DNA from: a bacterium
GTDB taxonomy: Bacteria; Patescibacteriota; Doudnabacteria; UBA920
Length of the DNA stretch: 64,000 nt
NCBI GenBank assembly: GCA_021825655.1
Contig: JAKAGU010000002.1
Coordinates: forward strand, 13,129 to 77,128
Direction of reading: 5' to 3'
A model generated the notes under the pieces. It was not told the origin of the DNA, searched no databases, and was given only the letters and a program-made list of their open reading frames with translations. Within the stretch, counting starts at the first letter, position 1; every line of letters begins with the position of its first letter. Of this stretch, positions 6,769 through 45,601 are shown piece by piece. The position numbers were made by a program, and so were the translations under genes.

Positions 6769-7911
6769 TTAATTGCTTTTCGGTTTAAAATCCGCACCCA
6801 CGGCTTCTATGATGCTGGCAAAGCCGTCCCTTTTGAGGAGTCCGACCAAATCGTGGTTAATCAGGCCGATAATTTCCGGGCCTTCAAAAATCATGCCAGT
6901 AATCATTTGGATAAGCGAGGCGCCCAGCCGGATTTTTTTGTAAGCATCGGCCGCACTAAACACCCCGCCGCAGCCGATAATTACGAATTCTTTGCCTGCC
7001 TTTTTATAAATATAAGCAATCTGTTCGTTGGCCAAATCTTCCACCACTTTGCCCGAGATGCCGCCTTTTTCCGGTAACTTATCTTCCGCGCTGATTTTGC
7101 CGTTGTTGCGCTGCTTGGTCAGATTGGTGGAAACAAACCCGGTAACCTTATACTTGCGGGCCACGGCCAAAATTTCATCCAGTGCGTCCGTGGAAAGGTC
7201 GGCCGGCATTTTAATGAACACCGGCTTTTTTTTGCCGCCGATATCCAGGGCGGCGAGCAGGCGGTCCAGTTTGACCGGATCCGTAAACGGCTCCCCGCCA
7301 AAAGCGTTAGGGCAGGAAATGTTTATGGTAAAGTAATCCCCCACCCCCTCCGCCGCAAAAGTCTTGTAAGCCTTGAGGTAGTCCGCAATGCCTTTTTGCT
7401 CTTCTACAGTGTCCGGTGAATTGGCCTTAGCCAAACTTATGCCCACGGGAAAGCTAAATTTCATTTTTTTCAAACGCTGGGAAATGGCTTCGCTGCCATC
7501 GTTCTTTAGGCCGTAGTTCACAACCAGGGCCCGGGACTTAGGCAAGCGCCACAGCCAGGGGCGCGGATTGCCGTTGCATGCCACCCCCGTTACGCTGCCC
7601 GCTTCCATAAAACCAAAACCCACTTCCGGCAAAATCTGGGTAAGCTGCGCCTCCTTGTCAAACCCCGCAGCCAGGCCAATGGGGTTTTTAAAGGTCAGCC
7701 CGGCCACCTTTTGTTCCAGCATGTGATGCTGGTAGAAAAACAGCCAGCGCACCAGGCTACGGCTCCAGGCATGCTTGCCCAAAAAATGACCTACGCGCAC
7801 CATGCGCTCGTGCACTGTTTCGGGGTCCTGCAGGAAAAAGATTTCCTTAAGTATGTATTTGTACTTAAACCGGATTACGGCGGCCTTCAGCCTGAACCAC
7901 GCATCTTTCAT
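6769..7911 (-). CDS. pyrD: Dihydroorotate dehydrogenase (quinone), class 2
   Basis: LTFKNPIGLAAGFDK, the N-terminal membrane-association extension (FLQDPETVHE...) and the overall layout are collinear with E. coli PyrD. Confidence 0.85.
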   Translation of the reverse strand: MKDAWFRLKAAVIRFKYKYILKEIFFLQDPETVHERMVRVGHFLGKHAWSRSLVRWLFFYQHHMLEQKVAGLTFKNPIGLAAGFDKEAQLTQILPEVGFGFMEAGSVTGVACNGNPRPWLWRLPKSRALVVNYGLKNDGSEAISQRLKKMKFSFPVGISLAKANSPDTVEEQKGIADYLKAYKTFAAEGVGDYFTINISCPNAFGGEPFTDPVKLDRLLAALDIGGKKKPVFIKMPADLSTDALDEILAVARKYKVTGFVSTNLTKQRNNGKISAEDKLPEKGGISGKVVEDLANEQIAYIYKKAGKEFVIIGCGGVFSAADAYKKIRLGASLIQMITGMIFEGPEIIGLINHDLVGLLKRDGFASIIEAVGADFKPKSN

Positions 7912-18498: not shown

Positions 18499-18813
18499 AT
18501 GAAAAAAATCCTTTTGGCTGTAGGCTTGGCCGCGCTGCTCGCGGCTGGCTGCAACAGCTCAAAACCTGCTGCACAGAACCCGGGCGAACAGCCAGTAGCC
18601 CAGGCCCCTGAGCAGCAGACAAACCCAACCCCGGCGCCCGCTGTCCAGACACAGTCCAACGTGAAGGTCCAAAACGTTGATGACGCCTTAAACGAGCTTG
18701 ATAAGCAAGCGGCCAGCGAGCAATCCCTGACTGCCGGCACGGATGACAGCGACCTGACTGCCACAGATGCCACTGAGCTTAACAGCCTTACGGAGGTACC
18801 AAATGGAAACTAA
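18499..18813 (+). CDS. Small lipoprotein, Pro/Gln/Ala-rich
   Basis: Signal peptide with lipobox LLAAGC, then low-complexity sequence. Confidence 0.5.
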   Translation: MKKILLAVGLAALLAAGCNSSKPAAQNPGEQPVAQAPEQQTNPTPAPAVQTQSNVKVQNVDDALNELDKQAASEQSLTAGTDDSDLTATDATELNSLTEVPNGN

Positions 18814-19549
18814 ATTAAAAATAGCGGCGGCCCTTGCTTCCATATCCATCCTGGTGCCGGCTTTTGCCCTGGCTGCCTTGCCGGCGCAGGGAACAGCCGG
18901 TGCGGGACAGAATTTTTGCACCCGGCTGCCGGAATTGACCACGCAAGTCAATAACCGGCTGGCGCAGTCAACCACCAACCTGCAAAACCGCCAGCAGGAA
19001 ATCCAGACCAAAGTACAGGAAAGACAGACAACGCGGACTCAGCAGCTTACTCAGGTACGCAATACCGCTGCCCAGGACCGCCAGGCAATTTATACCCAGC
19101 TCATGGCCAAAGCCACGACCGATGCGCAAAAACAGGCTGTAACGACATTCCAAAACACCATCGAAGCTGCGGTTACCACCCGCCAGACTGCGGTTGACGC
19201 CGCAAGACTAGCCTACTGGACAGCCCTAGACTCCGATTTAAGCACCCGCCAGACCGCGGTATCCACGGCCCGGCAGAACTTCTTCAGCGCCATCCAAACG
19301 GCGCTAACCACAGCCAGCAGCCAGTGTGCTGCGGGCACGGCTCCGGCCACGGTAAGACAAAATTTCCAAACCGCGCTGCAAGCGGCCAAAACTCAATTCG
19401 CCACCAACCGTAAGGCAATCGACAAAATTGGCCCGGAAGTGAAAGCTTTGGTACAGACCCGCAATGCGGCTATTAAAAAAGCCATGGATACTTTTAAAAC
19501 CACAGCCCAGCAAGCCCGGACCACGCTTAAAGCCGCGTTCGGAAAATAG
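18803..19549 (+). CDS. Secreted Thr/Gln/Ala-rich helical-repeat protein
   Basis: The start METKLKIAAALASISILVPAFALAA is preceded by GGAGG. The remainder is a repetitive Q/T/A-rich helical sequence. Confidence 0.5.
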   Translation: METKLKIAAALASISILVPAFALAALPAQGTAGAGQNFCTRLPELTTQVNNRLAQSTTNLQNRQQEIQTKVQERQTTRTQQLTQVRNTAAQDRQAIYTQLMAKATTDAQKQAVTTFQNTIEAAVTTRQTAVDAARLAYWTALDSDLSTRQTAVSTARQNFFSAIQTALTTASSQCAAGTAPATVRQNFQTALQAAKTQFATNRKAIDKIGPEVKALVQTRNAAIKKAMDTFKTTAQQARTTLKAAFGK

Positions 19550-19632: not shown

Positions 19633-19839
19633 TTAAGCCAGATCCAAGATCGGGGTAGTTTCCTGAGCCAGATCCAAGATCGGGGTAGTTTCCTGAGCCA
19701 GATCCAAGATCGGGGTAGTTTCCTGAGCCAGATCCAAGATCGGGGTAGTTTCCTGAGCCAGATCCAAGATCGGGGTAGTTTCCTGAGCCAGCCCTGTAAA
19801 CCCAAACACTATAACCAGCACTACAATAAGCGTTTTCAT
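19633..19839 (-). CDS. Small secreted repeat peptide: signal peptide + (TTPILDLAQE) x5
   Basis: 68 aa ORF. MKTLIVVLVIVFGFTGLAQE is a signal peptide, and the 10-aa repeat is encoded by the 30-bp tandem repeat. There is no obvious SD. Coding status is uncertain because the other two frames are also open across the repeat. Confidence 0.4.
   Translation of the reverse strand: MKTLIVVLVIVFGFTGLAQETTPILDLAQETTPILDLAQETTPILDLAQETTPILDLAQETTPILDLA
19636..19791. repeat. Perfect 30-bp tandem repeat x5 (+ 6-bp partial sixth copy): AGCCAGATCCAAGATCGGGGTAGTTTCCTG
   Basis: Read directly from the sequence. Copies at 19636, 19666, 19696, 19726 and 19756 have no mismatches. Confidence 0.95.
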
Positions 19840-19915: not shown

Positions 19916-20521
19916 TTAATCCAAACCCATGCGGCGTGCCGTTAAAAATTTAAAGCGCCTTCTATATATGGCTAAAAGAATCAGGGAGTTAATTGCCAGC
20001 AGATAAACCTGAAACGCGGAATTTTCAATCGTCCATTTTGGTATGGACGGCAAGACCAGAAGCACGGCCACCAGGCCGGCGGCAAACGTCAGGCCTGTTT
20101 CGGTTTCCGGGTTTGTCCAGGCTTTGCGGAGGGTGGGCAGGGCTGCAAAGCCGTCAGCTGCAGCTGCCAGCAGCACCGCCAGCCGGGGGGAGGCAAGGCC
20201 CCAAACCAGCAGCGCCAGCACTGAAAACGCGCCGCAAAGGAAATCAAATATTGTTAACTTCCAATAGCTTCTCGGGTTTACGAAAGAAGCGATCAAAACC
20301 AGCAAAGGTATAAACCCGGCCAAAAAAGTCCGGGTGGTCGCCCAGATATCGGCATGCGCGGAAATCGCCGCTCCTGTGCCAACCAGCGGCGCCAGCGCCC
20401 ACAAAGCCCACGACACTCGGTTCGGCCTGGTTGTACCCTTTAGCGTGTCGCGGACATAGACAAAAGAGCCAACAAGGCTTATTAGGGCGCTAAGCACAAC
20501 CAACCAATGGACAAAACTCAT
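19916..20521 (-). CDS. Hypothetical polytopic membrane protein
   Basis: 201 aa with 5-6 hydrophobic helices. Not recognised. Confidence 0.45.
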   Translation of the reverse strand: MSFVHWLVVLSALISLVGSFVYVRDTLKGTTRPNRVSWALWALAPLVGTGAAISAHADIWATTRTFLAGFIPLLVLIASFVNPRSYWKLTIFDFLCGAFSVLALLVWGLASPRLAVLLAAAADGFAALPTLRKAWTNPETETGLTFAAGLVAVLLVLPSIPKWTIENSAFQVYLLAINSLILLAIYRRRFKFLTARRMGLD

Positions 20522-20622: not shown

Positions 20623-22149
20623 TTAGACAAACCCGGGAAAAAAGTCGGTTTTTATTTTATTCGACGCAACCCCCATGCTCAGAAGCGCGTTTTCATAAGC
20701 CGTAACCATGGCGTGGGGCCCGGAAAGATAAAACCTGCGCTGTTTAAAATCGGGCACTTCAGCGGCAATCAGCTCCGCATTTATCGGACCGACATTACCC
20801 TGCCAGCCGGCTGGCACCTGGGTTTTGTCGGTTAGGGTATAAACAGCCCGAAGGCCAAGCTTTTCCACAGCCTGGTCGAAAATATCGGTGTAAACCGCCT
20901 CCGCAGCCGTCTTGTTGCTGTAAAACAGCACAATATCCCTGGCCTGGTTTGTATCCAGCAAATATTTAATCATGCTGCGAAAAGGAGTAATACCGATACC
21001 GCCCGCAATAAACACGCTTTTTTCTTGGGGGTTCTCCGGCAGGGTAAAATCCCCTGCCAGCTGGCCGGCTAAGATTTTATCGCCGGGCTGCATTGCCAGC
21101 ATGGATTTTTTGTAGCTGCTCGGCGGGTCATAAAATTTTACACCCATGATAATTTCTTGCTCAGTCGGCGCGGAAGCGATAGTAAAATAACGGCGGTTAC
21201 CCCGGTTATCTGGCTTATCGTGTTCCAGCGTCCACTCCAAATACTGACCCGCCCGGAACGGCATGCCCGTATCCGTTGCAAAAACAAAATCGAAAATACC
21301 CGGGCCCAGGCGCATTTTTTCTTTTAAGGTAAGCAGGAGTTTCTTTTTCGGGCTGGCTAAATAAGAAAACACGTTGCCCGCCAGAAGTGCCAGCTCAGGC
21401 GTGGAATAAAGCGAAAGCACATGCATCTGAGGAGCGAACAACAACCCCACCAGTCCGCCGTAAACGGCCTGCAGCCCTTTGGTCGGCGGGGTTGTCAGGG
21501 GTTCCGTCAGCATCACAAAAGCAAAGAAGAACAACGGCGAGTCCACAAGCACCTTCTGCACAGAAGAGACCAAGTCCAGGCCGCGGGCCAGATCCAAACC
21601 CAGAATAGTGACCAAGGCCACAACGAAAAAACTGAACACCAGGTCAAACCTCCTGATTTTCCTCACAGTCAGAAAACCGCCCACCAATACAAACGGCAGC
21701 ATCCAGGCCGTGCCCACCCACCAGCTCGCCGACTGGTTAATGGTCAAAGCCGTAAGGGCCACGGCAAAAGCCACGGGGTTAAAAATATGTTTCCGATTAA
21801 AGGCCAGAATATACTTGGAAACTTGGGACCAAATCGCGGCCCAGGCCACAAACCCGAAATACTGGGCGTCCAAAGTTTTAATCGGCGTAATAATCAAAGC
21901 TAAAATCAAAGCGGTTATATAAACGGATTCCACATTGGTGGGCACATTAAAAATCCAGGCGGAAACCACATTCACGATCCAGCAAAGCAGAGTGATAAAA
22001 AATACGGAATACACCAGCCCCACCGGGCTATAGGGCAAAGCGCCAAACAGACTTAAAAGAAAAGCCGCCGCCAAAAGGCCGATGAGGTAATACAGCACCA
22101 GCCGGTACATGGTTATTTTGTTCAAAAAATCATCTACAAAGGTAAGCAT
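20623..22149 (-). CDS. Membrane-embedded FNR-like flavin oxidoreductase (N-terminal polytopic domain + C-terminal FAD/NAD(P)H-binding domain)
   Basis: The C-terminal half has the ferredoxin-NADP reductase family FAD motif RRYFTIASAP (RxY[ST]) and the NAD(P) motif GGIGITPFRSM. The N-terminal roughly 270 aa are multi-pass TM and lack the paired-His heme ligands of ferric-reductase (NOX) domains. Confidence 0.7.
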   Translation of the reverse strand: MLTFVDDFLNKITMYRLVLYYLIGLLAAAFLLSLFGALPYSPVGLVYSVFFITLLCWIVNVVSAWIFNVPTNVESVYITALILALIITPIKTLDAQYFGFVAWAAIWSQVSKYILAFNRKHIFNPVAFAVALTALTINQSASWWVGTAWMLPFVLVGGFLTVRKIRRFDLVFSFFVVALVTILGLDLARGLDLVSSVQKVLVDSPLFFFAFVMLTEPLTTPPTKGLQAVYGGLVGLLFAPQMHVLSLYSTPELALLAGNVFSYLASPKKKLLLTLKEKMRLGPGIFDFVFATDTGMPFRAGQYLEWTLEHDKPDNRGNRRYFTIASAPTEQEIIMGVKFYDPPSSYKKSMLAMQPGDKILAGQLAGDFTLPENPQEKSVFIAGGIGITPFRSMIKYLLDTNQARDIVLFYSNKTAAEAVYTDIFDQAVEKLGLRAVYTLTDKTQVPAGWQGNVGPINAELIAAEVPDFKQRRFYLSGPHAMVTAYENALLSMGVASNKIKTDFFPGFV

Positions 22150-22151
22150 AT

Positions 22152-22895
22152 TTAGTTGGTTACGTATTGTTCGAAGCCCGATGTTTTGGTGGCTATCCCC
22201 TGACTGTCTATCATGTAGCCCTCCAGGCCTTCAATGGACTCAATAAAATTAATTCCTTCCCTGCCCATGGCAAAAGCGGCAGTGGCAAACCGGTCAGCCT
22301 CATATATGTTGGGGCCGATTATCGTAAGGCTCACAATTTCTAAGAGCTGTTGGCCCGGCTTGAAGGGGTTGTAAATGTGCTGGCCCCGCTCGGCAGTGCC
22401 TGAGGTGGCTACTCCCTGGCTGGTAATACTCAGGACTTTGACAATCTCCTCGTGCTTGAAAGGATTGCGGATACCCACGCGCCACGATTGACTGCCCGCA
22501 TCTTCCACCTGACCCTGAATGTCCCCGCCCGCGTCTATAAAAAAATACTTGTGGCCCGCACGCTCCAGCAGCAGGCTTGCCTGCCAGATGGCCCAGCCTT
22601 TAACTATGCCCGACGGATCCCAAAAGCCTTCGGGCCGCCAAATATTAAAATAGCCCCTGGTGGCTTTTTTAGTTTCTTCCGCCAGCATAAAAATTTTTTT
22701 AATGTCCGGAGGGTATTGGCTTTCCGCCAACTCGCCTCGGTTAATCTGGCTAATGGCGCTGTTTGGCTTATACGTACTGAAGGTCTCGTCAATATACTGA
22801 AAATATTCAAATACTCTGTCACAGCCCTGCTTTTCGTCGCCGTCCCTGACCTCGACTGTAATGTGCATACCCATCAAATTTCGAGTTTGCTGCAT
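22152..22895 (-). CDS. apbE: FAD:protein FMN transferase (ApbE family), short form without signal peptide
   Basis: ApbE core motifs FFIDAGGDIQGQ and GVATSGTAERG. 247 aa. Confidence 0.75.
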   Translation of the reverse strand: MQQTRNLMGMHITVEVRDGDEKQGCDRVFEYFQYIDETFSTYKPNSAISQINRGELAESQYPPDIKKIFMLAEETKKATRGYFNIWRPEGFWDPSGIVKGWAIWQASLLLERAGHKYFFIDAGGDIQGQVEDAGSQSWRVGIRNPFKHEEIVKVLSITSQGVATSGTAERGQHIYNPFKPGQQLLEIVSLTIIGPNIYEADRFATAAFAMGREGINFIESIEGLEGYMIDSQGIATKTSGFEQYVTN

Positions 22896-22899
22896 AAAC

Positions 22900-23520
22900 T
22901 TAATTCTTCGCTTTGGCTAAGGCCGAAGCCAGGGATTGCTGGAAAGCCTGGCTCGAATCCGTGGCTCCTGAAACTATGTCTACATTTGCGCTCTGGGCTG
23001 CAATTGCCTCAGCTTTCAAATAAGGCATAGCCTGGCCGTTAATTTCGCGGGAAGTACTGCGGTCATTTGGGTACTGCAAGAACACCACGTCTGTAATTTT
23101 GCCGCCAGCAACAGTCACCTGCACTTGGATGTTGCCGTAATAGGCGTCTGCGACGCTGCCCGTATACTGCCCGTCCGCGTATTGGCCCTTGGGTTTAGGT
23201 GCCGGAACAGGAGCCGGAGCCGGTACGGGCGCCGGAGTAGGCGCGGGGACGGGCTTGGGCTGGGCAGGGGCGGGAGCAGGGATGGAAATTGGCAAGGGCT
23301 GGGACTGGCTGCTTTTTGGAGGGCTACTGGGCGGATCAGCGGCAATGGGCGCCTGTACGGGAACTTCCGCAATCGCGGCCGTGGAAGTGGCCTCAGGAGC
23401 TGCAGGTTTAATGGCAGAAACGTCAACCAAAACACCAGGCGCAGGCGCCAGCCTGCTCTGGTAAATCGCGTAAAAGGTAAAGCCGCCGACTATAATTAAT
23501 GAGTAAAAAAATTTCTTCAT
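22900..23520 (-). CDS. Membrane-anchored FMN-binding domain protein (ApbE flavinylation target, SGAT motif)
   Basis: N-terminal TM anchor followed by a (PAPVPA)n linker. The C-terminal FMN_bind domain ends ...DIVSGATDSSQAF, containing the flavinylated Thr of NqrC/RnfG-type domains. Confidence 0.75.
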   Translation of the reverse strand: MKKFFYSLIIVGGFTFYAIYQSRLAPAPGVLVDVSAIKPAAPEATSTAAIAEVPVQAPIAADPPSSPPKSSQSQPLPISIPAPAPAQPKPVPAPTPAPVPAPAPVPAPKPKGQYADGQYTGSVADAYYGNIQVQVTVAGGKITDVVFLQYPNDRSTSREINGQAMPYLKAEAIAAQSANVDIVSGATDSSQAFQQSLASALAKAKN

Positions 23521-23535
23521 AACTTTAAAAAACGG

Positions 23536-24138
23536 TTATTCTTCATCGCTATTGCCGTTATGCCCGGACACATACTCTCCATCCACCCAGGCGTATTCCC
23601 CTGACTTCAAGCGAATACGGTACCAGCCGTCTTCCTCCCCGGTATAATTATACGTTTGGCCGGGGTAGGCCTTGCCAATCACAGAACCGGAAACTGCAGG
23701 CTGGCTCCTGGCGTTTAAATAACCCGTAGGGGTTTCTTTTATTTTAACGCTTTTTTTGCTTTGTAGACTCTTGCGGACGGGAGCAGGCGCAGATATGTTT
23801 GCGTTCGCCGTTGGAGCCGAAGCTGGAGGAGTGGCCGAGGCAACCGGTTCGGATAAAGTTTGATCAGGCAGAGCCATCTGCCCCAGCACTGCCGGTTTAG
23901 GCGCAGCCTGGGCCAACTTGGAGGTTTTCCCTGAAGCTGACACAAGCACGTACTTGCCGGCGGCAACCAAGGCCAGAAGGCTTAGGCTGGCCAGGAATAT
24001 TTTGGCACTGGGCAATTTTTTCCCGCCTGTGTTTTTGTTTAGAAACAACTTTTCGGGTCCATTAAAAAATCTACTGTCAGGTTTTAACCCATCCTGGCTA
24101 ATGTTGCGCACTTCAAAATTTGGACCTTGTTGATTCAT
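23536..24138 (-). CDS. Membrane-anchored bacterial SH3 (SH3b) domain protein
   Basis: C-terminal GYLNARSQPAVSGSVIGKAYPGQTYNYTGEEDGWYRIRLKSGEYAWVDGEYV matches SH3_3. There is one TM helix (IFLASLSLLALVAAGKYVLV) and a Pro/Ala-rich linker. Confidence 0.6.
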   Translation of the reverse strand: MNQQGPNFEVRNISQDGLKPDSRFFNGPEKLFLNKNTGGKKLPSAKIFLASLSLLALVAAGKYVLVSASGKTSKLAQAAPKPAVLGQMALPDQTLSEPVASATPPASAPTANANISAPAPVRKSLQSKKSVKIKETPTGYLNARSQPAVSGSVIGKAYPGQTYNYTGEEDGWYRIRLKSGEYAWVDGEYVSGHNGNSDEE

Positions 24139-24140
24139 GT

Positions 24141-24560
24141 TTAGTTTCTGGCTTGGGATAAAGCGCTGGCCAGGGACTGCGCAAAAGCTTGGCTGGTATC
24201 GGTCGCGCCGGAAATTACGTTTACCTGAGCGCTCTGGCTGGCAATGGCTTCGGCTTTCAGGTACGGCATGGACTGGTTACTAATACTCTTGGAAGTTGGC
24301 CGGTCGTTGGGGTACTGCAAAAATGTCACATTGGCCAGCTTGCCGCCGGACACAATTGCCTGGACCTGCACGTTGCCGTAATAAGCGTCGACTGCGTTGC
24401 CTGTATACGTACCGTCTTTATAGCTAATATTTTGGCCGGGCTGGTTTTGGCTGATTATTGGCGGCGTTACCCGGTGTTCGCCGTAACGCTGGTAAACCGC
24501 ATATGCGCATATGGCGGCAAAAAGGGTTGCTCCAATCAGGAGCTTCTTCACTGTTGTCAT
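24141..24560 (-). CDS. Membrane-anchored FMN-binding domain protein (second copy)
   Basis: N-terminal TM anchor. The FMN_bind domain with ...NVISGATDTSQAF is collinear with 22900..23520. Confidence 0.75.
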   Translation of the reverse strand: MTTVKKLLIGATLFAAICAYAVYQRYGEHRVTPPIISQNQPGQNISYKDGTYTGNAVDAYYGNVQVQAIVSGGKLANVTFLQYPNDRPTSKSISNQSMPYLKAEAIASQSAQVNVISGATDTSQAFAQSLASALSQARN

Positions 24561-24632
24561 GTGGTGGGGGTTAAATTATCTCTTTTTTAGGATACCAAAA
24601 CCACATGAAGCTGGCATGAAGCCATAAATTAA

Positions 24633-26051
24633 CTACGGGCTAAAAGATGGCTGCACGCTTAATTCCAAATGGTAAGGATTGCCATTTCTGGCCTTTAAAC
24701 CCCCGTATTTTACTATCCCTTCCAGAATATACTTCTGTTTTAAGGGCAAATTTGTTACACCAGCGCCAAGAACGGGCAAATCGTACGGCCCCAACTTGCC
24801 AGCAGCCTCATCGGAAAAAATTGCATAACCGTTGTCCTGCTGCAAAACATAACCCTCTACCGCCACTTTTTTATCCACAAAATTCTGGGCTTGTCTGCTT
24901 ACGCTGCCAATACTGGAAACGGGCAAAGTCCCGCGGGTTTTAATAATATCCAAGCCGTCAGGAATGTTCAGCTGCCCATAGCCGGCGCCAGGCTTGCCCG
25001 TGACGCCATACTGCCAGATTATTTTTTTGGTCTGCTTGTCAACCACTATCACACGGTGATTCTGGTCATCGTTGGCCAAAATATTACCGTTAGGCAGCTC
25101 AATCGCCAAGGAAGGGTGGTTCAGCTTCACATCCCCGTCCTGGCCGCTGAATTGCCACACCACTTTACCCTGCCGGCTTACTTCCACCACCTGTCCGGGA
25201 TTGCTGTAGTCGGCTATCAGAATATTGCCTGCCTGAGTCAGCTGGGGGTCTGACGGGTACCTTACCGGCAGAACCATATTAAAAACCGGCTGCCAGGAAT
25301 TATCCAACTCCACCAGATTCTTTCCCACGATGTTGCTAACCAGGGTGTGCCCGCCGGCCAGGGGCGTGTCGCCATTGGGCTTATCAAGAAAACCCGCTTG
25401 GTTTTTACAAACACCAGTTTGTCCATATTGCCGCACAATCTGCTTTTCGGGAGAAATTTCCAAAATGCGGCAGTTCTTTATGTCCGCGACCGTCACGTCG
25501 CCATTAGGTAGCTTGTAGGCATCATCTGGCGTATTCAGGTATCCGGGCGCAGATCCTGCATGCCCGCCAACGCCATAGCTCCAGGTTACCTGCTTGCTCG
25601 CATAATCGATAATCTGAATCAGATGGTATTCTTCCAAATTCACGATAACCGAGTTGCCGCTATCCGTAAAAAAAGAATCGTCCGCACCCAGGCCGGCTTT
25701 GGGCAAATGAAAGGCGTACTCCCAAATTACCCGTTTGTCGGGGGTTACTTCCAAAAGCCGGTTGTTACCCCGGTCGGCAATCAAGACATTATAACCACCC
25801 AAGGCGGAGGTATCTTTCGGTTCGCCTTTCACCTCTAAAGGCGTAGCCACAACGGGCGCAGCCGGAGGGTTTGCCTCATAGCTTTCAGGCAAGGTCTCCT
25901 GCGCTTCGCCGCCAAGGTCGCTATCTGAAAGCTGGGCTTGTCTGGCAGAAAAAAATATCCGGGTGTTTCCCCGGGACAGCAGGACCGCCGCAAGGATTAC
26001 CACGCAAAAACCGCAAAAGATGCCGGCGGCAAGAAGAATCTTTTTTTTCAT
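24633..26051 (-). CDS. Secreted beta-propeller repeat protein (NHL/ASST-like repeats)
   Basis: Signal/anchor MKKKILLAAGIFCGFCVVILAAVLL. At least five degenerate repeats of the form N.R(V/L).(V/I)...(K/G).(V/I).W(E/Q/S)(Y/F). Confidence 0.5.
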   Translation of the reverse strand: MKKKILLAAGIFCGFCVVILAAVLLSRGNTRIFFSARQAQLSDSDLGGEAQETLPESYEANPPAAPVVATPLEVKGEPKDTSALGGYNVLIADRGNNRLLEVTPDKRVIWEYAFHLPKAGLGADDSFFTDSGNSVIVNLEEYHLIQIIDYASKQVTWSYGVGGHAGSAPGYLNTPDDAYKLPNGDVTVADIKNCRILEISPEKQIVRQYGQTGVCKNQAGFLDKPNGDTPLAGGHTLVSNIVGKNLVELDNSWQPVFNMVLPVRYPSDPQLTQAGNILIADYSNPGQVVEVSRQGKVVWQFSGQDGDVKLNHPSLAIELPNGNILANDDQNHRVIVVDKQTKKIIWQYGVTGKPGAGYGQLNIPDGLDIIKTRGTLPVSSIGSVSRQAQNFVDKKVAVEGYVLQQDNGYAIFSDEAAGKLGPYDLPVLGAGVTNLPLKQKYILEGIVKYGGLKARNGNPYHLELSVQPSFSP

Positions 26052-27082
26052 GTTGAAATTTTATATTTTTTCTGCGCGGGCAGACTGATTAAAAAATCCG
26101 TCCCCTGCCCGAGGGCGCTCTGTACTGCCAAGTGGCCGCCATGCGCATCAACAATCGCCTTGACAATGGACAGCCCCAATCCTGTTCCTTGCCCGTGCTT
26201 GGACTGGTCGCCCTGGTAAAAACGTTCAAAAATAAAAGGCAAGTCTTTTTCCGCAATCCCAACACCGGTATCGGCAATTTTGACGTCTACCTGGTTGTCT
26301 TTTACGGCCAGGCTAATATCCACCCTGCCTTGTGGCTTATTGTATTTGATGGCATTTTCAATCACGTTGGCAAAAGCGTGCTCCAGAAAATGCCGGCTGC
26401 CAAAAATCTGTACGGGGCCTGACTCGGCCAGCGCCAGTTCTATTTTGCTGCTATGAGCCAGGCCCTGAAACCTGTCCACGGTCTTGCTCAGCAATTGCTG
26501 CAAATCTACGGGCATAAAACCCGAGCTGAAATCCTGGCCTTCGGCTTGCGATAATTCCAGCAGCTGGTGGCTTAGCCGGGTCAAGTTGCCAATTTCTTCC
26601 AAAAGACTGGCTAAGGTCTTTTGGACCCCGGCGGACAGTTCGATTTTTTGGCGCTGCAGAACCTCAATATCCGTACGCATTACTGCCAAAGGCGTACGGA
26701 GTTCGTGGGAGGCGTCGGCCACGAAGCGCTTCTGGCCTTCCATGGCCAGTTTAATGGGTTTCAAAGTGTACCCGGCAAAACTATAGCTGGCAAAGGCTGC
26801 TACCAACAAAACGGCCCCGTCAATCATAACTAGCAGCCAGGCCAGCCTTTCGCAGGCATCGTCAAAAAAATTCTCTTCCTGAATGAGTTCGCCTCGGACA
26901 TTTTCGCGGTAGGAACGTCGAAGCTGCTGGGTGGTGGCAGTATAAAAACTTATGCTGAAAACCGTAACGATTACGAAAATAATCGCCATGTACCACAAAG
27001 TCAGCTTGACCCGGGCCTGGTGGAACGGATCAAAATTCAAGCCGGTAGCCGAGGCCCCGGACGGTTTGGAGGTGTTTGCCAT
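26048..27082 (-). CDS. Sensor histidine kinase (HisKA + HATPase_c)
   Basis: H-box ADASHELRTPLAVM, N-box IENAIKYN and G2 GTGLGLSIVKAIVDAHGG. The N-terminus overlaps the upstream response regulator stop by 53 bp, so the real start may be the internal ATG at 26989. Confidence 0.85.
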   Translation of the reverse strand: MANTSKPSGASATGLNFDPFHQARVKLTLWYMAIIFVIVTVFSISFYTATTQQLRRSYRENVRGELIQEENFFDDACERLAWLLVMIDGAVLLVAAFASYSFAGYTLKPIKLAMEGQKRFVADASHELRTPLAVMRTDIEVLQRQKIELSAGVQKTLASLLEEIGNLTRLSHQLLELSQAEGQDFSSGFMPVDLQQLLSKTVDRFQGLAHSSKIELALAESGPVQIFGSRHFLEHAFANVIENAIKYNKPQGRVDISLAVKDNQVDVKIADTGVGIAEKDLPFIFERFYQGDQSKHGQGTGLGLSIVKAIVDAHGGHLAVQSALGQGTDFLISLPAQKKYKIST

Positions 27083-27698
27083 ATGCGCCCAGTTTCTTTC
27101 TTAAATTTTTAACATGCACATCGACCACGTTACTGAATGAATCAAAGGAAAAATCCCAAACGGCGGCAAGAATCTGATCCCGGGAAAGTACCTGGCCGGC
27201 GTGGCGCATAAAATACTCCAATAGCCGATACTCCCGCAAAGTTAAGGCCAAGGATCTGCCGCTTAAGGTAACCTGTTTTTTTGCGCTGTCCAAAATTAGC
27301 GGCCCCACCAGCAAAACCTCCGAGACCAAAGCCTGCGGGCGGCGCAAGAGCGCCCGAAGCCTGGCCAAAAGTTCGCTAAACTCAAATGGCTTAATCAGGT
27401 AATCGTCCGCGCCTGCGTCCAGACCCAGAACCTTATCATCCGTGGTGTCTCTGGCGGTCAGCATTAAAACCGGGGTGATAATATTTTTTTCGCGCCAAGC
27501 ACCGCATACCGAAACCCCGTCCTTGCCCGGCAGCATAATATCCAAAATTACCAAGTCATACATATCCCTGTGCGTTTCCAGCCTTTTTTCGCCCATTTCC
27601 CCGTCAAACAGCAAATCCACGGCATAACCCTCTTGCTCCAAGCCGAGCTTGAGGGAATTGGCTAATTTGGCATTGTCTTCGATAACCAATATTTTCAT
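27030..27698 (-). CDS. OmpR-family response regulator (receiver + winged-helix)
   Basis: Receiver domain MKILVIEDN...DLVILDIMLPGKDG...LMLTARD. C-terminal trans_reg_C LTLREYRLLEYFMRHAGQVLSRDQILAAVW...VDVHVKNLRKKL. Confidence 0.9.
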   Translation of the reverse strand: MKILVIEDNAKLANSLKLGLEQEGYAVDLLFDGEMGEKRLETHRDMYDLVILDIMLPGKDGVSVCGAWREKNIITPVLMLTARDTTDDKVLGLDAGADDYLIKPFEFSELLARLRALLRRPQALVSEVLLVGPLILDSAKKQVTLSGRSLALTLREYRLLEYFMRHAGQVLSRDQILAAVWDFSFDSFSNVVDVHVKNLRKKLGAYGKHLQTVRGLGYRLEF

Positions 27699-27888
27699 GT
27701 CTTTATTGTATCCTTCTTAAATGAAGCTGGCATGAAGGCGCAGGAAGACTTGCGGCTGCCCAAACAAAAAAACTACGGACAAAATATCCCTAGTTCCACC
27801 AATACCGGTTAATTCCGCTGTTTTGCATTTAACTGGATATTGTTTTGTCATTTTATTTAAAATCAAACCTTTAACAGACGGATCTATT

Positions 27889-27963
27889 GGCTGGGGTGGT
27901 AGGGATCGAACCTACGAATGGGGGCTTCAAAGGCCCCTGCCTTACCGCTTGGCTACACCCCAA
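27889..27963 (-). tRNA. tRNA-Gln (anticodon UUG)
   Basis: Minus-strand read TGGGGTG-TA-GCC-AAGCGGTAA-GGC-A-GGGGC-CTTTGAA-GCCCC-CATTC-GTAGG-TTCGATC-CCTAC-CACCCCA-G-CCA. The U1:A72 pair and G73 are typical of bacterial tRNA-Gln. Confidence 0.85.
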
Positions 27964-28069: not shown

Positions 28070-29131
28070 TTGTATAATCAAGTTATGGATTTGACCCAAG
28101 CTTTTCACCCCAATCTTTATCTGATTTTTGAACTCCTGGGCGCCATTTCGTTTGTTGCCATCCTGGCCCGGGAAATCTACCAAAAAAACGAAACTCGTGT
28201 TTTTGAAATCCTTAGCGCGCTGGTTTTCGGTCTGCTATTGGAAATCGGCAACACCCACCTGGGCCATACCTACACCTATAGCCCAAATTTTGTGATCCAA
28301 ATCTTCAACGTTCCCCTGGCCATCGGCGTCTACTGGGCGCTGATTATTTACAGCGTCATGCTGCTTTCCGACCAGTACCGGCTGCCCTGGGTTATCCGTC
28401 CGTTCATGGACGCGCTCACAGCCATAATTTTAGACCTCTATTTGGACGTAGTGGCCGTGCGTTTGGGTTTTTGGACTTGGGTTATCCCTAAAAACCAGGA
28501 ATGGTACGGGATCCCTTTTGATAACCTGGCGGGCTGGATTTTTGTAGTTATATCTTTTTCCTTTATTATCCGCTTTATCCGCACACTCAACTTAAAACGC
28601 TGGCTGACGCGGCTGATGCTAATTTTAAGTCCGCTGTTGGCCTACCTGGGACTGATGCTGCTTTTAGCCCTGTTCGGTTTTCTCAGTCTGCTACCCTATG
28701 CCTTAAATAACTGGGGCCAGTGGACAGCTGCGGACATTAACCCCAATATCAATGTTTTCTACAATCCCGAAATCCAGTTGTGGAAAATCATTATTTTTGT
28801 GGCCATACTGGTTCAGCTGGCCAACATTGTCGTAAGCGCCATGATTAAATACCGGAAAAAGTATGTTTGGCACTTTGACTTGTTAAGCTTTACCATCCTG
28901 ACCAGCATGCACCTTTTTATTATTATTACCCTGTTTACCTCGGGCACCTACCGGGAACTGCCGATTTTCATCTTTTTTGCCGCCTGTTTCTTTTCCATCC
29001 ACCTGCTCCTCCACTTTTTGCCCCACACTTTACAGAAACCTAAAGTCTACTATTTCTTCCGCCGGATTGGTAAAACCTTGAATTCGGAGGAAAGGCATAT
29101 GGAAAAATTCGTGGAAGCCAACCTAAAATAA
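28070..29131 (+). CDS. Hypothetical polytopic membrane protein (8-10 TM)
   Basis: 353 aa. Hydrophobic helices throughout. No catalytic motif recognised. Confidence 0.5.
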   Translation: MYNQVMDLTQAFHPNLYLIFELLGAISFVAILAREIYQKNETRVFEILSALVFGLLLEIGNTHLGHTYTYSPNFVIQIFNVPLAIGVYWALIIYSVMLLSDQYRLPWVIRPFMDALTAIILDLYLDVVAVRLGFWTWVIPKNQEWYGIPFDNLAGWIFVVISFSFIIRFIRTLNLKRWLTRLMLILSPLLAYLGLMLLLALFGFLSLLPYALNNWGQWTAADINPNINVFYNPEIQLWKIIIFVAILVQLANIVVSAMIKYRKKYVWHFDLLSFTILTSMHLFIIITLFTSGTYRELPIFIFFAACFFSIHLLLHFLPHTLQKPKVYYFFRRIGKTLNSEERHMEKFVEANLK

Positions 29132-29432: not shown

Positions 29433-29885
29433 TTAATTGCCCTGCGGCCCGCCCGGCATAGGCGCCTGTTCGGGGCGGATCTGGATTTGCTGCGCAGTAA
29501 CGCTGCCGTCGGAATTGGCAGTTCCCGCAACCGTTACTTGCTGGCCTGCCGCCAGGTCCCCGGCCGAGCCGGCTACAGCCTTGCCAATGCTGGTGGTAGA
29601 AGAATAAAAAACAATTCTAGTGCTGCCATCCCGCAGTTTCAGGGTAACGCTCTTGTCGTCTTTACTTAACACGTCCCCGCTCAGAAAACCACCCGCTTGG
29701 CCGTTGCCGAAACGCCGCGTGCCGGTCGCCGTGCCATTCTGGCCGTTACCGCGCATTTGCTGAAAAGCGTTCTGCGGATTATTTGCCAGCCCTTTGCCCT
29801 GGGCGTATTTCATACCCCCGTAAAAACCCAAACTCCCCGCAACCACCAAAGTCACAAGACTTATGGAAATAATTTTTTTATCCAT
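29433..29885 (-). CDS. Secreted Gly/Gln-rich small beta protein (DUF5666-like), paralog of 34147..34668
   Basis: Signal anchor, low-complexity G/N/Q region, then VTLKLRDGSTRIV...GQQVTVAGTANSDGSVTAQQIQI, similar to ...DRIVAIGAPKEDGSVAASFIRV in the paralog. Confidence 0.45.
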   Translation of the reverse strand: MDKKIISISLVTLVVAGSLGFYGGMKYAQGKGLANNPQNAFQQMRGNGQNGTATGTRRFGNGQAGGFLSGDVLSKDDKSVTLKLRDGSTRIVFYSSTTSIGKAVAGSAGDLAAGQQVTVAGTANSDGSVTAQQIQIRPEQAPMPGGPQGN

Positions 29886-43511: not shown

Positions 43512-43895
43512 TTAAGCCAGGCGGATAGTGCGGTTCAGCACATCCTCGACTTTTTGGATTATATCAGCCGTAGATTGGTCGCTTTTCAGCAAATAGTCCA
43601 TGGCTCCGGCGTCAAAAATCTTGGCTATGGTACCCGCATCCCCGATATTTGTCAGGACGATAACGGCAATACCTGAGGTGGCGGGGTTGGCGCGCAGCTC
43701 CCAAAGCACGGAAATACCGTCCAACTTGGGCATCATAATGTCCAAAAGCATAATTTCCGGCAAGCTTTCTTTAGCTAAGGCCACGGCCTGCTCGCCGTCG
43801 TAAGCAGGTGTAACATCATAACCTTTGGCCTTTAAAGCCGTACAGAGTGATTCAGAAATCATCTTATCGTCTTCGGCTACAACGATTTTTGTCAT
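43512..43895 (-). CDS. Single-domain response regulator (CheY-like receiver)
   Basis: KIVVAEDD...D-(10)...LLDIMMPKLDG...VIVLT...K receiver motifs. 127 aa, no output domain. Confidence 0.85.
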   Translation of the reverse strand: MTKIVVAEDDKMISESLCTALKAKGYDVTPAYDGEQAVALAKESLPEIMLLDIMMPKLDGISVLWELRANPATSGIAVIVLTNIGDAGTIAKIFDAGAMDYLLKSDQSTADIIQKVEDVLNRTIRLA

Positions 43896-43930
43896 ATTTT
43901 ACGTCTCCTCCGGTCCTACAGACCGTGAAA

Positions 43931-45601
43931 TTAGTCTTTAAGCGGAATTGAAAAATAAAAAGTGCTACCCAAATTTTCACCAGCGCTCTCGGCCCAAATC
44001 TTACCCCCGTGAGCCTCCACAATACCTTTGGAAACCACCAGGCCCAAGCCCGTGCCTTTGCGGCTAGAATCGTAAGATTTCAGCTGTTTAAACTTGGAGA
44101 ACAGCTGCGGCAAATCATCGCGAGAAATGCCCACGCCCGTATCCTTGATGGCAACTATCATCTGCTTGTGCTCCATATCCGCACTCACATTGACTTCTAT
44201 CCTGCCCGCATCCGTATATTTGATAGAATTGCTAATAAGGTTGCCCATAACCTGGCCAATGCGTACCTTGTCAAAATGCATACGGTAACTGTCGGGGCTG
44301 GTCAACCCGATTTCCAAATGCTTCATTTCCGCTTGGGACTGGAAGGTTTTAATCTGCTCCTTAATTACGGCAATCAGGTCATATTCCTGGACATTCAGCT
44401 CGAATTTGCCGGCTTCGATCTTGGCCACATCCAGCAAGTCATTGACCAATTCCAGCATGTTATTGGACGCGTGTTCTATGGTAATAACCGTGTCCTTAAT
44501 CTTGTCCGGCTCTGCGGCGGCCTGGGCCGCAGACAGGTTTCTGAGCAGCGACTCCGAAGACCAGCGCACCGCCGTCAGCGGGGCCCTGAGTTCGTGGACC
44601 ATCATGGCCGTAAATTCCTGGCGCAATTTTTCCAAAGCCTTTTCCGTGGTAATGTCATGCAGCACCACGGCCGCGCCGATCTTTTCGCCGGCATCGTTTT
44701 TAACGGGCGTAACCGTCACTTCCAAAGCCTTATCCCTTAAGACCACGTCCGGCACAAAAACCGGCTTGTCCTCAGCCAAAGCCTGATCAATTTTAGTGCG
44801 TAAATCCACCTTGCCCGCTAAGGCATCGACAATATCAAAAGAAGTCAATATCTTTTCACCGACAATCTCCAAAATGGTCTTTACCGCCGGGTTGGACAGA
44901 ATCAGCCGGTGCTGCAAATCCACGGTAAACACGCCGTCGGTTAATGCATACAGAATACCCGAGAGCTTGCCTTTTTCGCTTTCCAACAAAGCCTGGAGTT
45001 TAGATACGGCCGTGGCCGCCTGATTGGTAATATTATAAAGGATAGTGGTTTGGTCTTCACCGTACTGATTCACTTCCCGGGAGGCCACGTTAATAATACC
45101 AATAAGCTTGCCCGTAATTACCACAGGCAGGTTAAAGTATGAACCGATACGAAAGCCGGAATTGTCGTCTAAAATATTCCCGGTAATGCTTTCGTCTATT
45201 TTTTTCGGCTTAACCTCCTGGTCTTCGATAACCGAGTAAGCCAAAAAGATTTTTTCCTTTACCGCTTCAACAAAGGCATGGCTCACGGAATTCTCCACGT
45301 GGCACTTAAATACCGCCTTTCCCCCCTCTTCCATCATCATGTAGGAAACCGTATCATAGGCAAGGAGGTTGCCCAGGCTGCTGGTAATAATTTCTACGAT
45401 CTTATTGGTGTCCAGGGAATAGCCGATGCGTTCATTAATTTCCTGGAAAACCTGAGCCTGGTAAACCTTTTGTTGCAACTCTAAAGACTGGTCGGCGCGG
45501 CTCTTTAAAAAAGAACGCTCGCGCATGGACGAGATAATATATACAGTCACCACGATTGCCAGAAAGGCAAAGTCTACGATTAACAGGATGTTAACGATCA
45601 T
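43931..45601 (-). CDS. Sensor histidine kinase with N-terminal TM, GAF-like and PAS-like modules
   Basis: H-box MVHELRAPLTAV, N-box ISNSIKYT and G-boxes IKDTGVGI / GTGLGLVVSKGIVEAHGG. Confidence 0.85.
   Translation of the reverse strand: MIVNILLIVDFAFLAIVVTVYIISSMRERSFLKSRADQSLELQQKVYQAQVFQEINERIGYSLDTNKIVEIITSSLGNLLAYDTVSYMMMEEGGKAVFKCHVENSVSHAFVEAVKEKIFLAYSVIEDQEVKPKKIDESITGNILDDNSGFRIGSYFNLPVVITGKLIGIINVASREVNQYGEDQTTILYNITNQAATAVSKLQALLESEKGKLSGILYALTDGVFTVDLQHRLILSNPAVKTILEIVGEKILTSFDIVDALAGKVDLRTKIDQALAEDKPVFVPDVVLRDKALEVTVTPVKNDAGEKIGAAVVLHDITTEKALEKLRQEFTAMMVHELRAPLTAVRWSSESLLRNLSAAQAAAEPDKIKDTVITIEHASNNMLELVNDLLDVAKIEAGKFELNVQEYDLIAVIKEQIKTFQSQAEMKHLEIGLTSPDSYRMHFDKVRIGQVMGNLISNSIKYTDAGRIEVNVSADMEHKQMIVAIKDTGVGISRDDLPQLFSKFKQLKSYDSSRKGTGLGLVVSKGIVEAHGGKIWAESAGENLGSTFYFSIPLKD

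Follow-up and report, generated by a model that had tools for sequence, protein, structure and literature searches.

Does this Patescibacteria locus encode a novel kind of flavin-based module, as a sequence-only reading had proposed, or a variant of a known one? Its core is the same as that of the published “NQR/RNF-like” system, an NqrB/RnfD-like + NAD-binding fusion with FMN_bind and ApbE, so the claim of novelty has to be dropped. The relevant parts of Meheust et al. (2021, eLife, PMC8238504) and Huang et al. (2024, mSystems, PMC11334425) describe this system as two subunits in 127 clusters; it is very widespread, and the family is far larger than published. To this core, particular lineages have added the SH3b protein, the propeller and the second carrier. 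We consider it likely that the locus represents an expanded, lineage-specific NQR/RNF-like flavin “wire”, along which electrons would run in a single direction, from NAD(P)H in the cytoplasm to the outer side of the membrane.

Organisation of the locus

The features are listed in the direction of transcription:

27705..27733, minus strand: candidate sigma-70-like promoter, ATGCCA-17-TACAAT, 9/12 matches, directly upstream of the response regulator gene
27030..27698, minus strand: OmpR/PhoB-type response regulator, 222 aa, operon gene 1 (Pfam Response_reg E 1.6e-24; Trans_reg_C E 7.5e-27)
26048..27082, minus strand: sensor histidine kinase, 344 aa (Pfam HisKA E 1.9e-13; HATPase_c E 6.8e-30)
24633..26051, minus strand: membrane-anchored NHL-repeat beta-propeller, 472 aa, six blades, with a C-terminal beta domain of ~90 aa
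24141..24560, minus strand: short-tether FMN_bind carrier, 139 aa (Pfam FMN_bind E 4.6e-7, 30.8 bits vs gathering score 22)
23536..24138, minus strand: SH3b protein, 200 aa, with one membrane pass and its bacterial SH3 domain outside the cytoplasm (Pfam SH3_3 E 5.5e-13, residues 140–191)
22900..23520, minus strand: long-tether FMN_bind carrier, 206 aa (Pfam FMN_bind E 1.8e-10, above gathering score)
22152..22895, minus strand: compact, leaderless ApbE-family FAD:protein FMN transferase, 247 aa (240 aa from the second ATG; Pfam ApbE E 3e-33)
20623..22149, minus strand: fusion of an NqrB/RnfD-like membrane domain (~1–265) and a cytoplasmic NqrF/FNR-like FAD/NAD(P)H domain (~270–508), 508 aa
20587..20605, minus strand: intrinsic terminator, 7-bp stem with 6 G-C pairs, then TATTGTTTTT

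All eight co-directional open reading frames (27698–20623) and the tight spacing reported in the sequence-only reading were recovered, the gaps from the response regulator to the fusion gene being -53, -4, 72, 2, 15, 4 and 2 nt. Its domain calls were all borne out by Pfam and NCBIfam, the propeller only weakly by sequence (NHL/PQQ_2) and as a six-bladed NHL fold by structure. The arrangement is not due to chance, since the same order was found again in other species (loci L004, L006 and L086). The strong terminator (20605–20587), starting 18 nt past the fusion stop codon, ends the operon. The site at 27705..27733 is only a candidate for the promoter of the response regulator gene, on weak evidence, because promoter-like sites are no more frequent in the region (11) than in shuffled sequence (8.9). 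The neighbourhood had been read as solely fermentative/glycolytic, which needs qualification: the window, that is the whole 64-kb stretch of DNA analysed, also codes for a quinone-dependent class-2 DHODH.

The fusion reductase

The cytoplasmic half of the 508-aa protein was recognised by Pfam (NAD_binding_1, E 6.3e-15), and both of the motifs assigned to it earlier hold: GGxGxTP is invariant in the family, and R-Y-F-T-I-A-S represents a Fre-like variant of RxYS. The NqrB/RnfD-like nature of the membrane half had gone unremarked. Its PF03116 match (25.0 bits) falls just under the gathering score of 27.7; most homologs have both PF03116 and PF00175, a profile match to RnfD 8ahx_D was obtained at E 3.9e-5, and hhalign aligned the domain to E. 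coli RsxD with a probability of 94%. The covalent-FMN loop of NqrB/RnfD is deleted (~79 aa, including Thr187 of RsxD), and heme or Fe-S ligands are absent from the NqrB/RnfD-like domain.

Loops on the FNR side have Lys + Arg counts of 2.1, 3.7 and 5.1, those on the opposite side 0.0–0.13. Invariant residues occur on both faces of the membrane domain, SASWW and PQxH..STPE being found in the loops that face outward, opposite the FNR domain, and invariant polar residues are located in or near the helices (N60, N72, S75, K112, K120, H121, N124 and E216). The protein does not fall into a known unrelated family; it resembles the sodium-pump subunits NqrB/RnfD and NqrF, and this likeness supports a role in flavin electron transfer.

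Two carriers with different tethers

Both small proteins are genuine FMN_bind domains behind an N-terminal anchor; the domains are paralogous (69% identical) and share V(N/D)(V/I)(I/V)SGAT, as VNVISGAT in the 139-aa and VDIVSGAT in the 206-aa carrier. The threonine claimed for flavinylation is thus present in each, and the motif was aligned with that of 8p2a, a domain of known structure whose flavinylation was shown by experiment (E 4.5e-15 for the 206-aa carrier); SGAT is kept in nearly all carriers of the family. The Pro/Ala linkers claimed for both proteins were found only in the 206-aa one (~92 aa, Pro/Ala/Ser/Thr-rich), while the ~25-aa linker of the 139-aa carrier is not Pro/Ala-rich. 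The 206-aa protein sits where the universal NqrC/RnfG-like subunit of the cassette sits, its equivalent being immediately upstream of ApbE in 74/83 loci.

The anchors carry more Lys + Arg on the N side than on the C side (2.5 vs 1.1; N>C in 41 proteins, N<C in 9). In agreement with the N-in anchoring proposed earlier, this charge bias predicts an N-in, C-out topology with the FMN_bind domains facing outward. Twin-arginine motifs are scarce in the carriers (1/66). In each of the five two-carrier loci measured, which represent two lineages with different gene orders, a tether of 20–25 aa is combined with a Pro/Ala-rich one of 74–95 aa; in the single-carrier loci (n=72) the tethers span 29–161 aa (median 64.5). 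Because all five loci pair a short tether with a long one, the pairing suggests a relay.

Distribution and lineage-specific additions

Of 83 non-redundant loci from Patescibacteria and Chloroflexota, 74 have the FMN_bind, ApbE and fusion genes clustered on one strand with little space between them. A clade related to Doudnabacteria has kept both the SH3b protein and the second FMN_bind protein, and the SH3b gene lies between two FMN_bind genes also in L004, L006 and L086. The propeller family (at least 5,804 homologs, mostly in Patescibacteria) is mostly sited away from such cassettes; the gene is next to the cassette in three species, elsewhere in L086, where the order is the same, and in L008, where the two are convergent. 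Its predicted structure (AF2 mean pLDDT 89.8) matched only generic NHL propellers in Foldseek, and the fold offers no hint of what the protein does; two cysteines, Cys194 and Cys215, are invariant in the family. Like the SH3b protein, the propeller has an N-terminal anchor.

The response regulator gene, whose closest NCBIfam model is RppA (score under its cut-off), shares 53 nt with the kinase gene, and the kinase and propeller genes overlap by 4 nt at the kinase stop codon. The kinase N-terminus shows by eye two hydrophobic segments ~30 residues apart, of which a hydropathy scan scored only the first, and has no recognisable sensor domain. Full-length relatives of 333–344 aa stand beside the cassette in the Patescibacteria loci L006, L017, L029, L031, L055 and L079, and the Patescibacteria kinases near cassettes are of the same short-loop form. 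Two-component control, as suggested earlier, is plausible here because the pair is co-transcribed and recurs in 13/83 loci no more than 2.5 kb from the cassette, in several arrangements; across the NQR/RNF-like system as a whole such control is not the rule, as ~84% of loci have no adjacent pair and L004 represents a five-gene core without one.

A leaderless ApbE

The ApbE gene is placed between the carrier genes and the fusion gene, and its product, aligned to the E. coli and Salmonella ApbE structures, retains STYK..S, KGWA, GGD, TSG, HIYNP and EADxxxT. The lack of an export signal had not been noticed in the sequence-only reading. Like ~78 orthologs, the protein has no hydrophobic segment and opens directly with the first core beta-strand; signal peptide, lipobox and membrane anchor are absent from the cassette ApbE at ~78 loci and from all 120 closest homologs (236–271 aa). 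An ApbE in the cytoplasm is not easily reconciled with FMN_bind domains that are exported, and this is the main difficulty for any trans-envelope model; the passages of PMC8238504 and PMC11334425 on this system do not discuss the conflict. Clusters without ApbE occur in the Doudnabacteria loci L006 and L086, and in L031 and L085.

Proposed electron path and alternative explanations

The general logic of flavin-based extracellular electron transfer (EET) recognised in the sequence-only reading holds: ApbE, a predicted outward FMN_bind carrier and a membrane reductase for cytoplasmic NAD(P)H. Electrons of NAD(P)H would pass to the FAD of the FNR domain, from there to a non-covalent flavin in the NqrB/RnfD-like domain, and then to the covalent FMN of a carrier docked on the outer face, as Huang et al. 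(PMC11334425) modelled for the Ktedonobacter complex in the part of their paper concerned with it. The short-tether carrier probably stays with the membrane complex, and the long-tether one probably ferries electrons outward across the wall zone, where the acceptor site may be held in place, or itself formed, by the SH3b protein and the propeller. Such a chain would likely serve a Patescibacteria cell with a small genome and a largely fermentative metabolism as an NAD(P)+-regenerating electron sink or for reduction of external substrates, its expression being probably tuned to an envelope or redox cue by the short-sensor two-component system.

The absence of an ApbE export signal across the whole family could also mean that the FMN_bind domains face the cytoplasm, are flavinylated inside and reduce a membrane or cytoplasmic substrate with no electron export. 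Cytoplasmic ApbEs with cytoplasmic targets are documented (the Klebsiella pneumoniae enzyme, which has no signal peptide, flavinylates a soluble fumarate reductase; review PMC12052999), and in L005 a second leaderless ApbE stands beside a soluble FNR-like protein. However, we regard this arrangement as unlikely: the carrier anchors obey the positive-inside rule for N-in, C-out, the long Pro/Ala-rich tethers and N-anchored SH3b and propeller neighbours suit an extracytoplasmic site, the loops with the invariant SASWW and PQxH..STPE are on the side away from the FNR domain, and the AlphaFold-multimer model, as far as the published account of it goes, has the carrier as an extracytosolic subunit. 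There is likewise a low probability that the fusion chiefly works as an NAD(P)H:quinone oxidoreductase, or is otherwise tied to the membrane quinone pool, using that part of the NqrB fold which bears riboflavin and ubiquinone in Na+-NQR, with the carriers as a side branch leading outward from the quinone/flavin site.

A minimal redox-driven ion pump, coupling NAD(P)H oxidation to Na+/H+ movement and thereby providing membrane potential for a respiration-poor cell, would agree with the origin of NqrB and RnfD in ion-translocating complexes and with the many invariant polar residues kept in or near the helices. Yet the NqrD/E and RnfA/E membrane subunits are absent from the operon, and the published interpretation, in the parts dealing with this system, is a simple one-way transfer; we find a pump very improbable, and since it would still require an external acceptor, it would add to the flavin wire and not replace it. 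The overlapping, co-transcribed two-component genes, their recurrence near other cassettes and the uniform short-loop kinases might indicate a system that is chiefly a redox sensor, its flavin chain signalling the extracellular or cytoplasmic redox state to a kinase with no sensor domain of its own. This is highly improbable: a sensor would not need a complete catalytic chain from NAD(P)H to flavin, nor a maturation enzyme of its own, and most loci, with the five-gene core of L004 among them, have no such pair.

Relation to known systems

No experimental study of any member of the NQR/RNF-like class was found in the literature. As described in the sections of the two papers on it, the system is like this locus in the fusion of an NqrB/RnfD-like membrane domain, lacking the flavinylation threonine, to a PF00175 NAD-binding domain, in the adjacent membrane-anchored NqrC/RnfG-like FMN_bind subunit with ApbE, and in its presence in the candidate phyla radiation; the short-tether second carrier, the SH3b protein, the NHL propeller and the co-transcribed two-component system are extra here. 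Na+-NQR (NqrABCDEF) and RNF (RnfABCDGE) share with the locus the NqrB/RnfD fold, the NqrF-fold reductase, a carrier homologous to NqrC/RnfG and ApbE-dependent covalent FMN on the SGAT threonine, which is predicted here. In contrast to them, the operon has no NqrA/D/E or RnfA/B/C/E counterparts, the NqrB/RnfD covalent-FMN loop is deleted, the FNR module has no preceding 2Fe-2S domain, and electron flow is presumably one-way and not semicircular.

Listeria-type EET (Ndh2, EetA/B, PplA, FmnB and DmkA) likewise works in a single-membrane cell with a transferase of the ApbE family, an FMN_bind flavoprotein at the surface and a membrane entry point where NAD(P)H is oxidised, although that entry is Ndh2 with quinone and not an NqrB/RnfD-like–FNR fusion. 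PplA is a two-domain lipoprotein, whereas the carriers here are single-domain proteins with a signal anchor (NCBIfam PplA, 16.9 bits vs cut-off 325), and unlike FmnB, the ApbE here has no lipoprotein signal. It resembles the K. pneumoniae enzyme in having no signal peptide, but the target of that enzyme is cytoplasmic and the only evident targets here are predicted to be exported.

An NQR/RNF-like module with an expanded architecture

The module encoded at 27698-20623 (-) is a member of an already described and very widespread class, the NQR/RNF-like systems. New at this locus is its conserved expanded architecture, comprising a second short-tether carrier, an SH3b protein, an NHL propeller and a co-transcribed two-component system; also new is the explicit statement of a problem in the localisation of ApbE. 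All eight minus-strand ORFs proposed in the sequence-only reading are present exactly where it placed them, and profile searches (Pfam, NCBIfam) confirmed every one of its domain assignments: an OmpR-type response regulator, a HisKA/HATPase_c kinase, an NHL/PQQ-like propeller, two FMN_bind proteins (the carriers), an SH3_3 protein, ApbE and a protein with a C-terminal NAD_binding_1 domain (the 508-aa fusion). The intergenic spacings in transcription order are -53, -4, 72, 2, 15, 4 and 2 nt, the last two placing an FMN_bind gene 4 nt upstream of ApbE and ApbE 2 nt upstream of the fusion. The following features lie at the operon borders:

27888-27962, (-), tRNA-Gln, anticodon TTG, directly upstream of the operon
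27733-27705, (-), weak promoter-like site upstream of the first operon gene
20605-20587, (-), strong intrinsic terminator 18 nt past the last stop codon; 7-bp stem with 6 G-C pairs, then a T-tract

The position of the terminator implies that the transcription unit ends with the 508-aa gene and that the next ORF (19916-20521, -) is separate. This ORF, located 101 nt downstream of the fusion and encoding a 201-aa multi-pass membrane protein, was considered as a ninth operon gene and ruled out because the terminator intervenes and because the ORF was found solely on contigs that come from the organism of the window itself (L001-L003); it has no match in Pfam or NCBIfam. The tRNA-Gln gene is preceded by a promoter-like site of its own (TTTTCA-17-TATAAT, 28012-27984). 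The exact proteins of the operon are present in public collections, where their source is Patescibacteria MAGs, and the NCBI names of cluster members, where given, are generic ("oxidoreductase", "FAD:protein FMN transferase", "FMN-binding protein", "hypothetical protein").

In Meheust et al. 2021 (PMC8238504), the NQR/RNF-like system is defined by a PF03116 + PF00175 fusion within a flavinylation gene cluster, and 127 such clusters are reported, chiefly from Actinobacteria and CPR. The window locus fits this definition, since its PF00175 fusion lies inside a cluster with FMN_bind and ApbE. Huang et al. 2024 (PMC11334425) present a model of the Ktedonobacter complex, in which the flavinylation site is lost from the NqrB/RnfD-like domain, and propose that the NqrC/RnfG-like subunit lets its covalent FMN sample the flavin site left vacant. 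The window fusion likewise lacks the flavinylation threonine in this domain, and the topology predicted from the protein sequences is compatible with docking of FMN_bind on the extracytosolic NqrB/RnfD-like face. All testable defining features of the system are present at the window locus. We found no experimental study of the NQR/RNF-like system in the literature.

Other flavin-based systems correspond less well. Canonical Na+-NQR/RNF is a six-subunit operon with NqrA/D/E or RnfA/B/C/E, none of which was matched (Pfam, NCBIfam) among the operon genes or the other window genes scanned; moreover, it carries covalent FMN on an NqrB/RnfD threonine, whereas in the window fusion the respective loop is deleted. 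Listeria-type extracellular electron transfer employs the lipoprotein PplA, Ndh2 and the lipoprotein FmnB. In the window operon, however, the NCBIfam PplA score is 16.9 bits against a cut-off of 325, Ndh2 is absent and the cassette ApbE has no lipobox.

The fusion protein

The relationship of the fusion to NqrB/RnfD was not visible in the sequence-only reading. Residues 149-261 give a sub-threshold match to Pfam NQR2_RnfD_RnfE, the membrane-domain profile matches RnfD in the PDB (E 3.9e-5), and hhalign pairs residues 155-261 with residues 229-334 of E. coli RsxD at a probability of 94%; the C-terminal part is the NqrF-like NAD-binding domain PF00175. When RsxD was added to the family alignment, the homology proved collinear with a single clean gap of ~79 residues, which takes out GISQAT187PLD, the segment with the flavinylated threonine. 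A string of the [ST][GQ]A[ST] type occurs in only 2 of 85 family membrane domains, both times in an unrelated helix. Residue S142 of the SASWW loop was considered as a relic flavinylation site and ruled out, because SASWW aligns with RsxD GAGWQW, after the deleted Thr187 loop; this position is Asn in 3 of 83 members.

Conserved His pairs or Cys clusters are absent from the membrane domain throughout the family, which leaves flavins as its sole plausible cofactors. According to the loop charges, the FNR domain shares one side of the membrane with three loops that are strongly basic, and the invariant uncharged loops SASWW and PQxH..STPE are on the opposite side. The family is large: at least 7,990 matches at E <= 1e-5, most with both PF03116 and PF00175; 763 cluster representatives (clustering at 50% identity) at E <= 1e-30; and, among species-representative genomes, at least 583 stretches that were confirmed. 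Of the named genomes, a Candidatus Doudnabacteria MAG comes closest (78% identity), and others represent many Patescibacteria lineages and Chloroflexota.

Conservation of the cassette and its accessory genes

To follow the conservation of the operon, we used its eight proteins as queries and obtained 83 non-redundant loci. In 74 of them, the genes for FMN_bind, ApbE and the fusion form a compact co-directional group; four more are cut by contig ends, three (L006, L031, L085) have no ApbE and two (L011, L053) no detectable FMN_bind gene. Homology, conserved synteny and topology provide good support for the flavin electron-transfer logic that had been proposed for the operon.

The extra genes of the operon are lineage-specific, yet not accidental. 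The FMN_bind-SH3b-FMN_bind arrangement recurs in L004 (fusion 79% identical), L006 (78%) and L086, the latter being a Doudnabacteria genome with the order RR-HK-propeller-FMN-SH3-FMN-fusion, where RR and HK are the response regulator and histidine kinase. In 13 of the 83 loci a two-component system is found no more than 2.5 kb from the cassette, in several orientations, and the cassette-linked kinases of Patescibacteria share one form (333-344 aa, short sensor). Some further observations concern these neighbourhoods. Both L006 and L086 (Ca. Doudnabacteria) keep the order RR-HK-(propeller)-FMN-SH3-FMN-fusion with the ApbE gene absent from the cluster, and in L006 a PAP2-family gene follows the fusion. 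The window itself contains a second two-component system (43512-45601, -), composed of a 556-aa GAF-PAS histidine kinase, unrelated to the operon's kinase type, and a receiver-domain protein. In the related MAG L005 (4282-8515), the genes next to the cassette encode a two-component system in divergent orientation, a rubredoxin, another leaderless ApbE of 311 aa, a 212-aa product that Pfam does not match and an FNR-like protein of 233 aa that stands alone; these neighbours may form a cytoplasmic flavinylation module of their own.

Homologs of the propeller number at least 5,804; they form a large Patescibacteria family and are found in varied contexts. The propeller also adjoins the cassette in L008, in a convergent arrangement and with a fusion only 61% identical. 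Its model predicts with confidence a six-bladed NHL propeller with a small C-terminal beta domain; the fold search returned generic NHL matches without a functional lead, and the resemblance to SOQ1 lumenal domains is partial, with a high rmsd. In the protein (24633-26051, -), Cys194 and Cys215 are invariant across 32 homologs, together with many Asp/Asn/Pro positions, and the two cysteines may be joined in a structural disulfide or act as a redox-active pair. In L087 (7001-13272), a MAG drawn from this mostly Patescibacteria family, a homolog is located directly upstream of the heme-copper oxidase operon COX2-COX1-COX3-COX4-UbiA, which gives this propeller family a second redox context.

Two carriers and a leaderless ApbE

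Both carriers exceed the Pfam gathering score for FMN_bind (PF04205) and possess flavinylation motifs of the [ST]GA[TS] type (VNVISGAT and VDIVSGAT), which are found in almost all of 86 carriers; the SGAT motif aligns with 8p2a. They are thus predicted ApbE substrates of the NqrC/RnfG/PplA type. Their FMN_bind domains are 69% identical, and the linkers between anchor and domain measure ~25 aa and ~92 aa, the longer one being rich in Pro/Ala/Ser/Thr. At single-carrier loci (n=72) the tether has a median of 64.5 aa (range 29-161), while all five two-carrier loci covered by the tether measurements (three Doudnabacteria-related species and two Levyibacteriota, with different gene orders) pair a tether of 20-25 aa with one of 74-95 aa, so that the short tether is below every single-carrier tether in length. 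This recurring pairing suggests a division of labour, in which one carrier would remain at the membrane complex and the other would reach outward.

The cassette ApbE is predicted to be an FAD:protein FMN transferase of the ApbE family (Pfam E 3e-33): aligned to 4xgw, 2o18 and 3pnd, it retains STYK..S, KGWA, GGD, TSG, H(I/V)xxP and EADxxxT. Its short length is due to an internal deletion that spares these motifs, and the closest 120 homologs all measure 236-271 aa. The protein begins at the first core beta-strand (MQQTRNLMGMHITVEV), without the N-terminal secretion or lipoprotein signal typical of ApbEs with extracytosolic targets. Orthologs at ~78 loci start with MK(Q/E)TRxLMGMPxTVE and contain no hydrophobic segment (maximum 17-residue hydropathy < 1.3). 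A Rosetta-stone search for fusions to a domain of known compartment gave none among the 120 closest homologs. The FMN_bind-ApbE fusion ORFs of L063 and L075, considered as evidence of a shared compartment, were ruled out: FMN_bind is matched in another frame, and the length of these ORFs is an artefact of spurious extension upstream, in Chloroflexi of high GC content.

The carriers, in turn, have classic N-terminal signal anchors with a positive-inside bias (K+R 2.5 vs 1.1; the charge is higher on the N-terminal side in 41 proteins and lower in 9), and twin-arginine motifs were not found on them. A cytoplasmic-looking transferase is therefore paired with exported targets, a conflict of which the searched text of PMC8238504 and PMC11334425 contains no discussion. 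Cytoplasmic ApbEs are known, for cytoplasmic substrates (PMC12052999). ApbE is able to act on terminal motifs of only seven residues, so that flavinylation of SGAT, which lies near the C-terminus, would be chemically conceivable before the carrier is exported. One alternative is that the carriers face inward; the other is that ApbE itself leaves the cell by some export route.

Combining these data, one can propose a wall-spanning flavin relay together with cytoplasmic flavinylation, a joint reading that we ourselves consider unlikely. The leaderless ApbE would flavinylate the C-terminal SGAT motif in the cytoplasm, ahead of carrier export. The short-tether carrier would then stay docked on the NqrB/RnfD-like domain and pass electrons to the long-tether "fishing-line" carrier, which would reach an acceptor site set up by SH3b and the NHL propeller, perhaps where the cell touches a host. 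A gene of the same window leaves room for a quinone-linked role of the NqrB-like domain, which we rate as unlikely:

6769-7911, (-), quinone-dependent class-2 dihydroorotate dehydrogenase (DHODH), above curated cut-offs

The scores of this enzyme are 334 bits for NF003652 (cut-off 267) and 270 for TIGR01036 (cut-off 200), and its presence in a Patescibacteria-type genome implies a membrane quinone or a substitute acceptor. The setting had been described as fermentative only, a description that the DHODH qualifies.

Genomic setting and significance

A large part of bacterial diversity belongs to the Patescibacteria (CPR), whose cells are generally portrayed as fermentative and devoid of an electron transport chain. 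A very widespread flavin wire from NAD(P)H to the surface, if true, could allow them to dispose of reducing equivalents or, alternatively, to exchange electrons with hosts or minerals. The window locus gives concrete handles in the form of a defined operon with regulators, and since the design with two carriers, one on a short and one on a long tether, recurs, the relay hypothesis can be tested. Resolving the contradiction between ApbE and its carriers would lead either to a correction of the topology published for the class as a whole or to a new maturation order for covalent flavoproteins. To our knowledge, pre-export cytoplasmic flavinylation has not previously been described as a route to a covalent flavoprotein; if it occurs, FAD export would no longer be needed. 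Close relatives of the cassette ApbE exist in cultivated Ktedonobacteria (Dictyobacter, Ktedonospora), which makes experiments feasible.

The rest of the window resembles a small-genome Patescibacteria chromosome (PGK, iPGM, archaeal-type PEP carboxylase, MreB, PBP2, HisRS, RecJ). The operon is flanked by genes for a secreted DUF5666 protein (29433-29885, -) and a Caroten_synth-family membrane protein (28070-29131, +). A perfect 30-bp tandem repeat (19636-19791, 5.2 copies, 100% matches, unit AGCCAGATCCAAGATCGGGGTAGTTTCCTG) occupies the intergenic region between the gene of a secreted Gln/Thr/Ala-rich protein (18767-19549, +) and the 201-aa membrane ORF.
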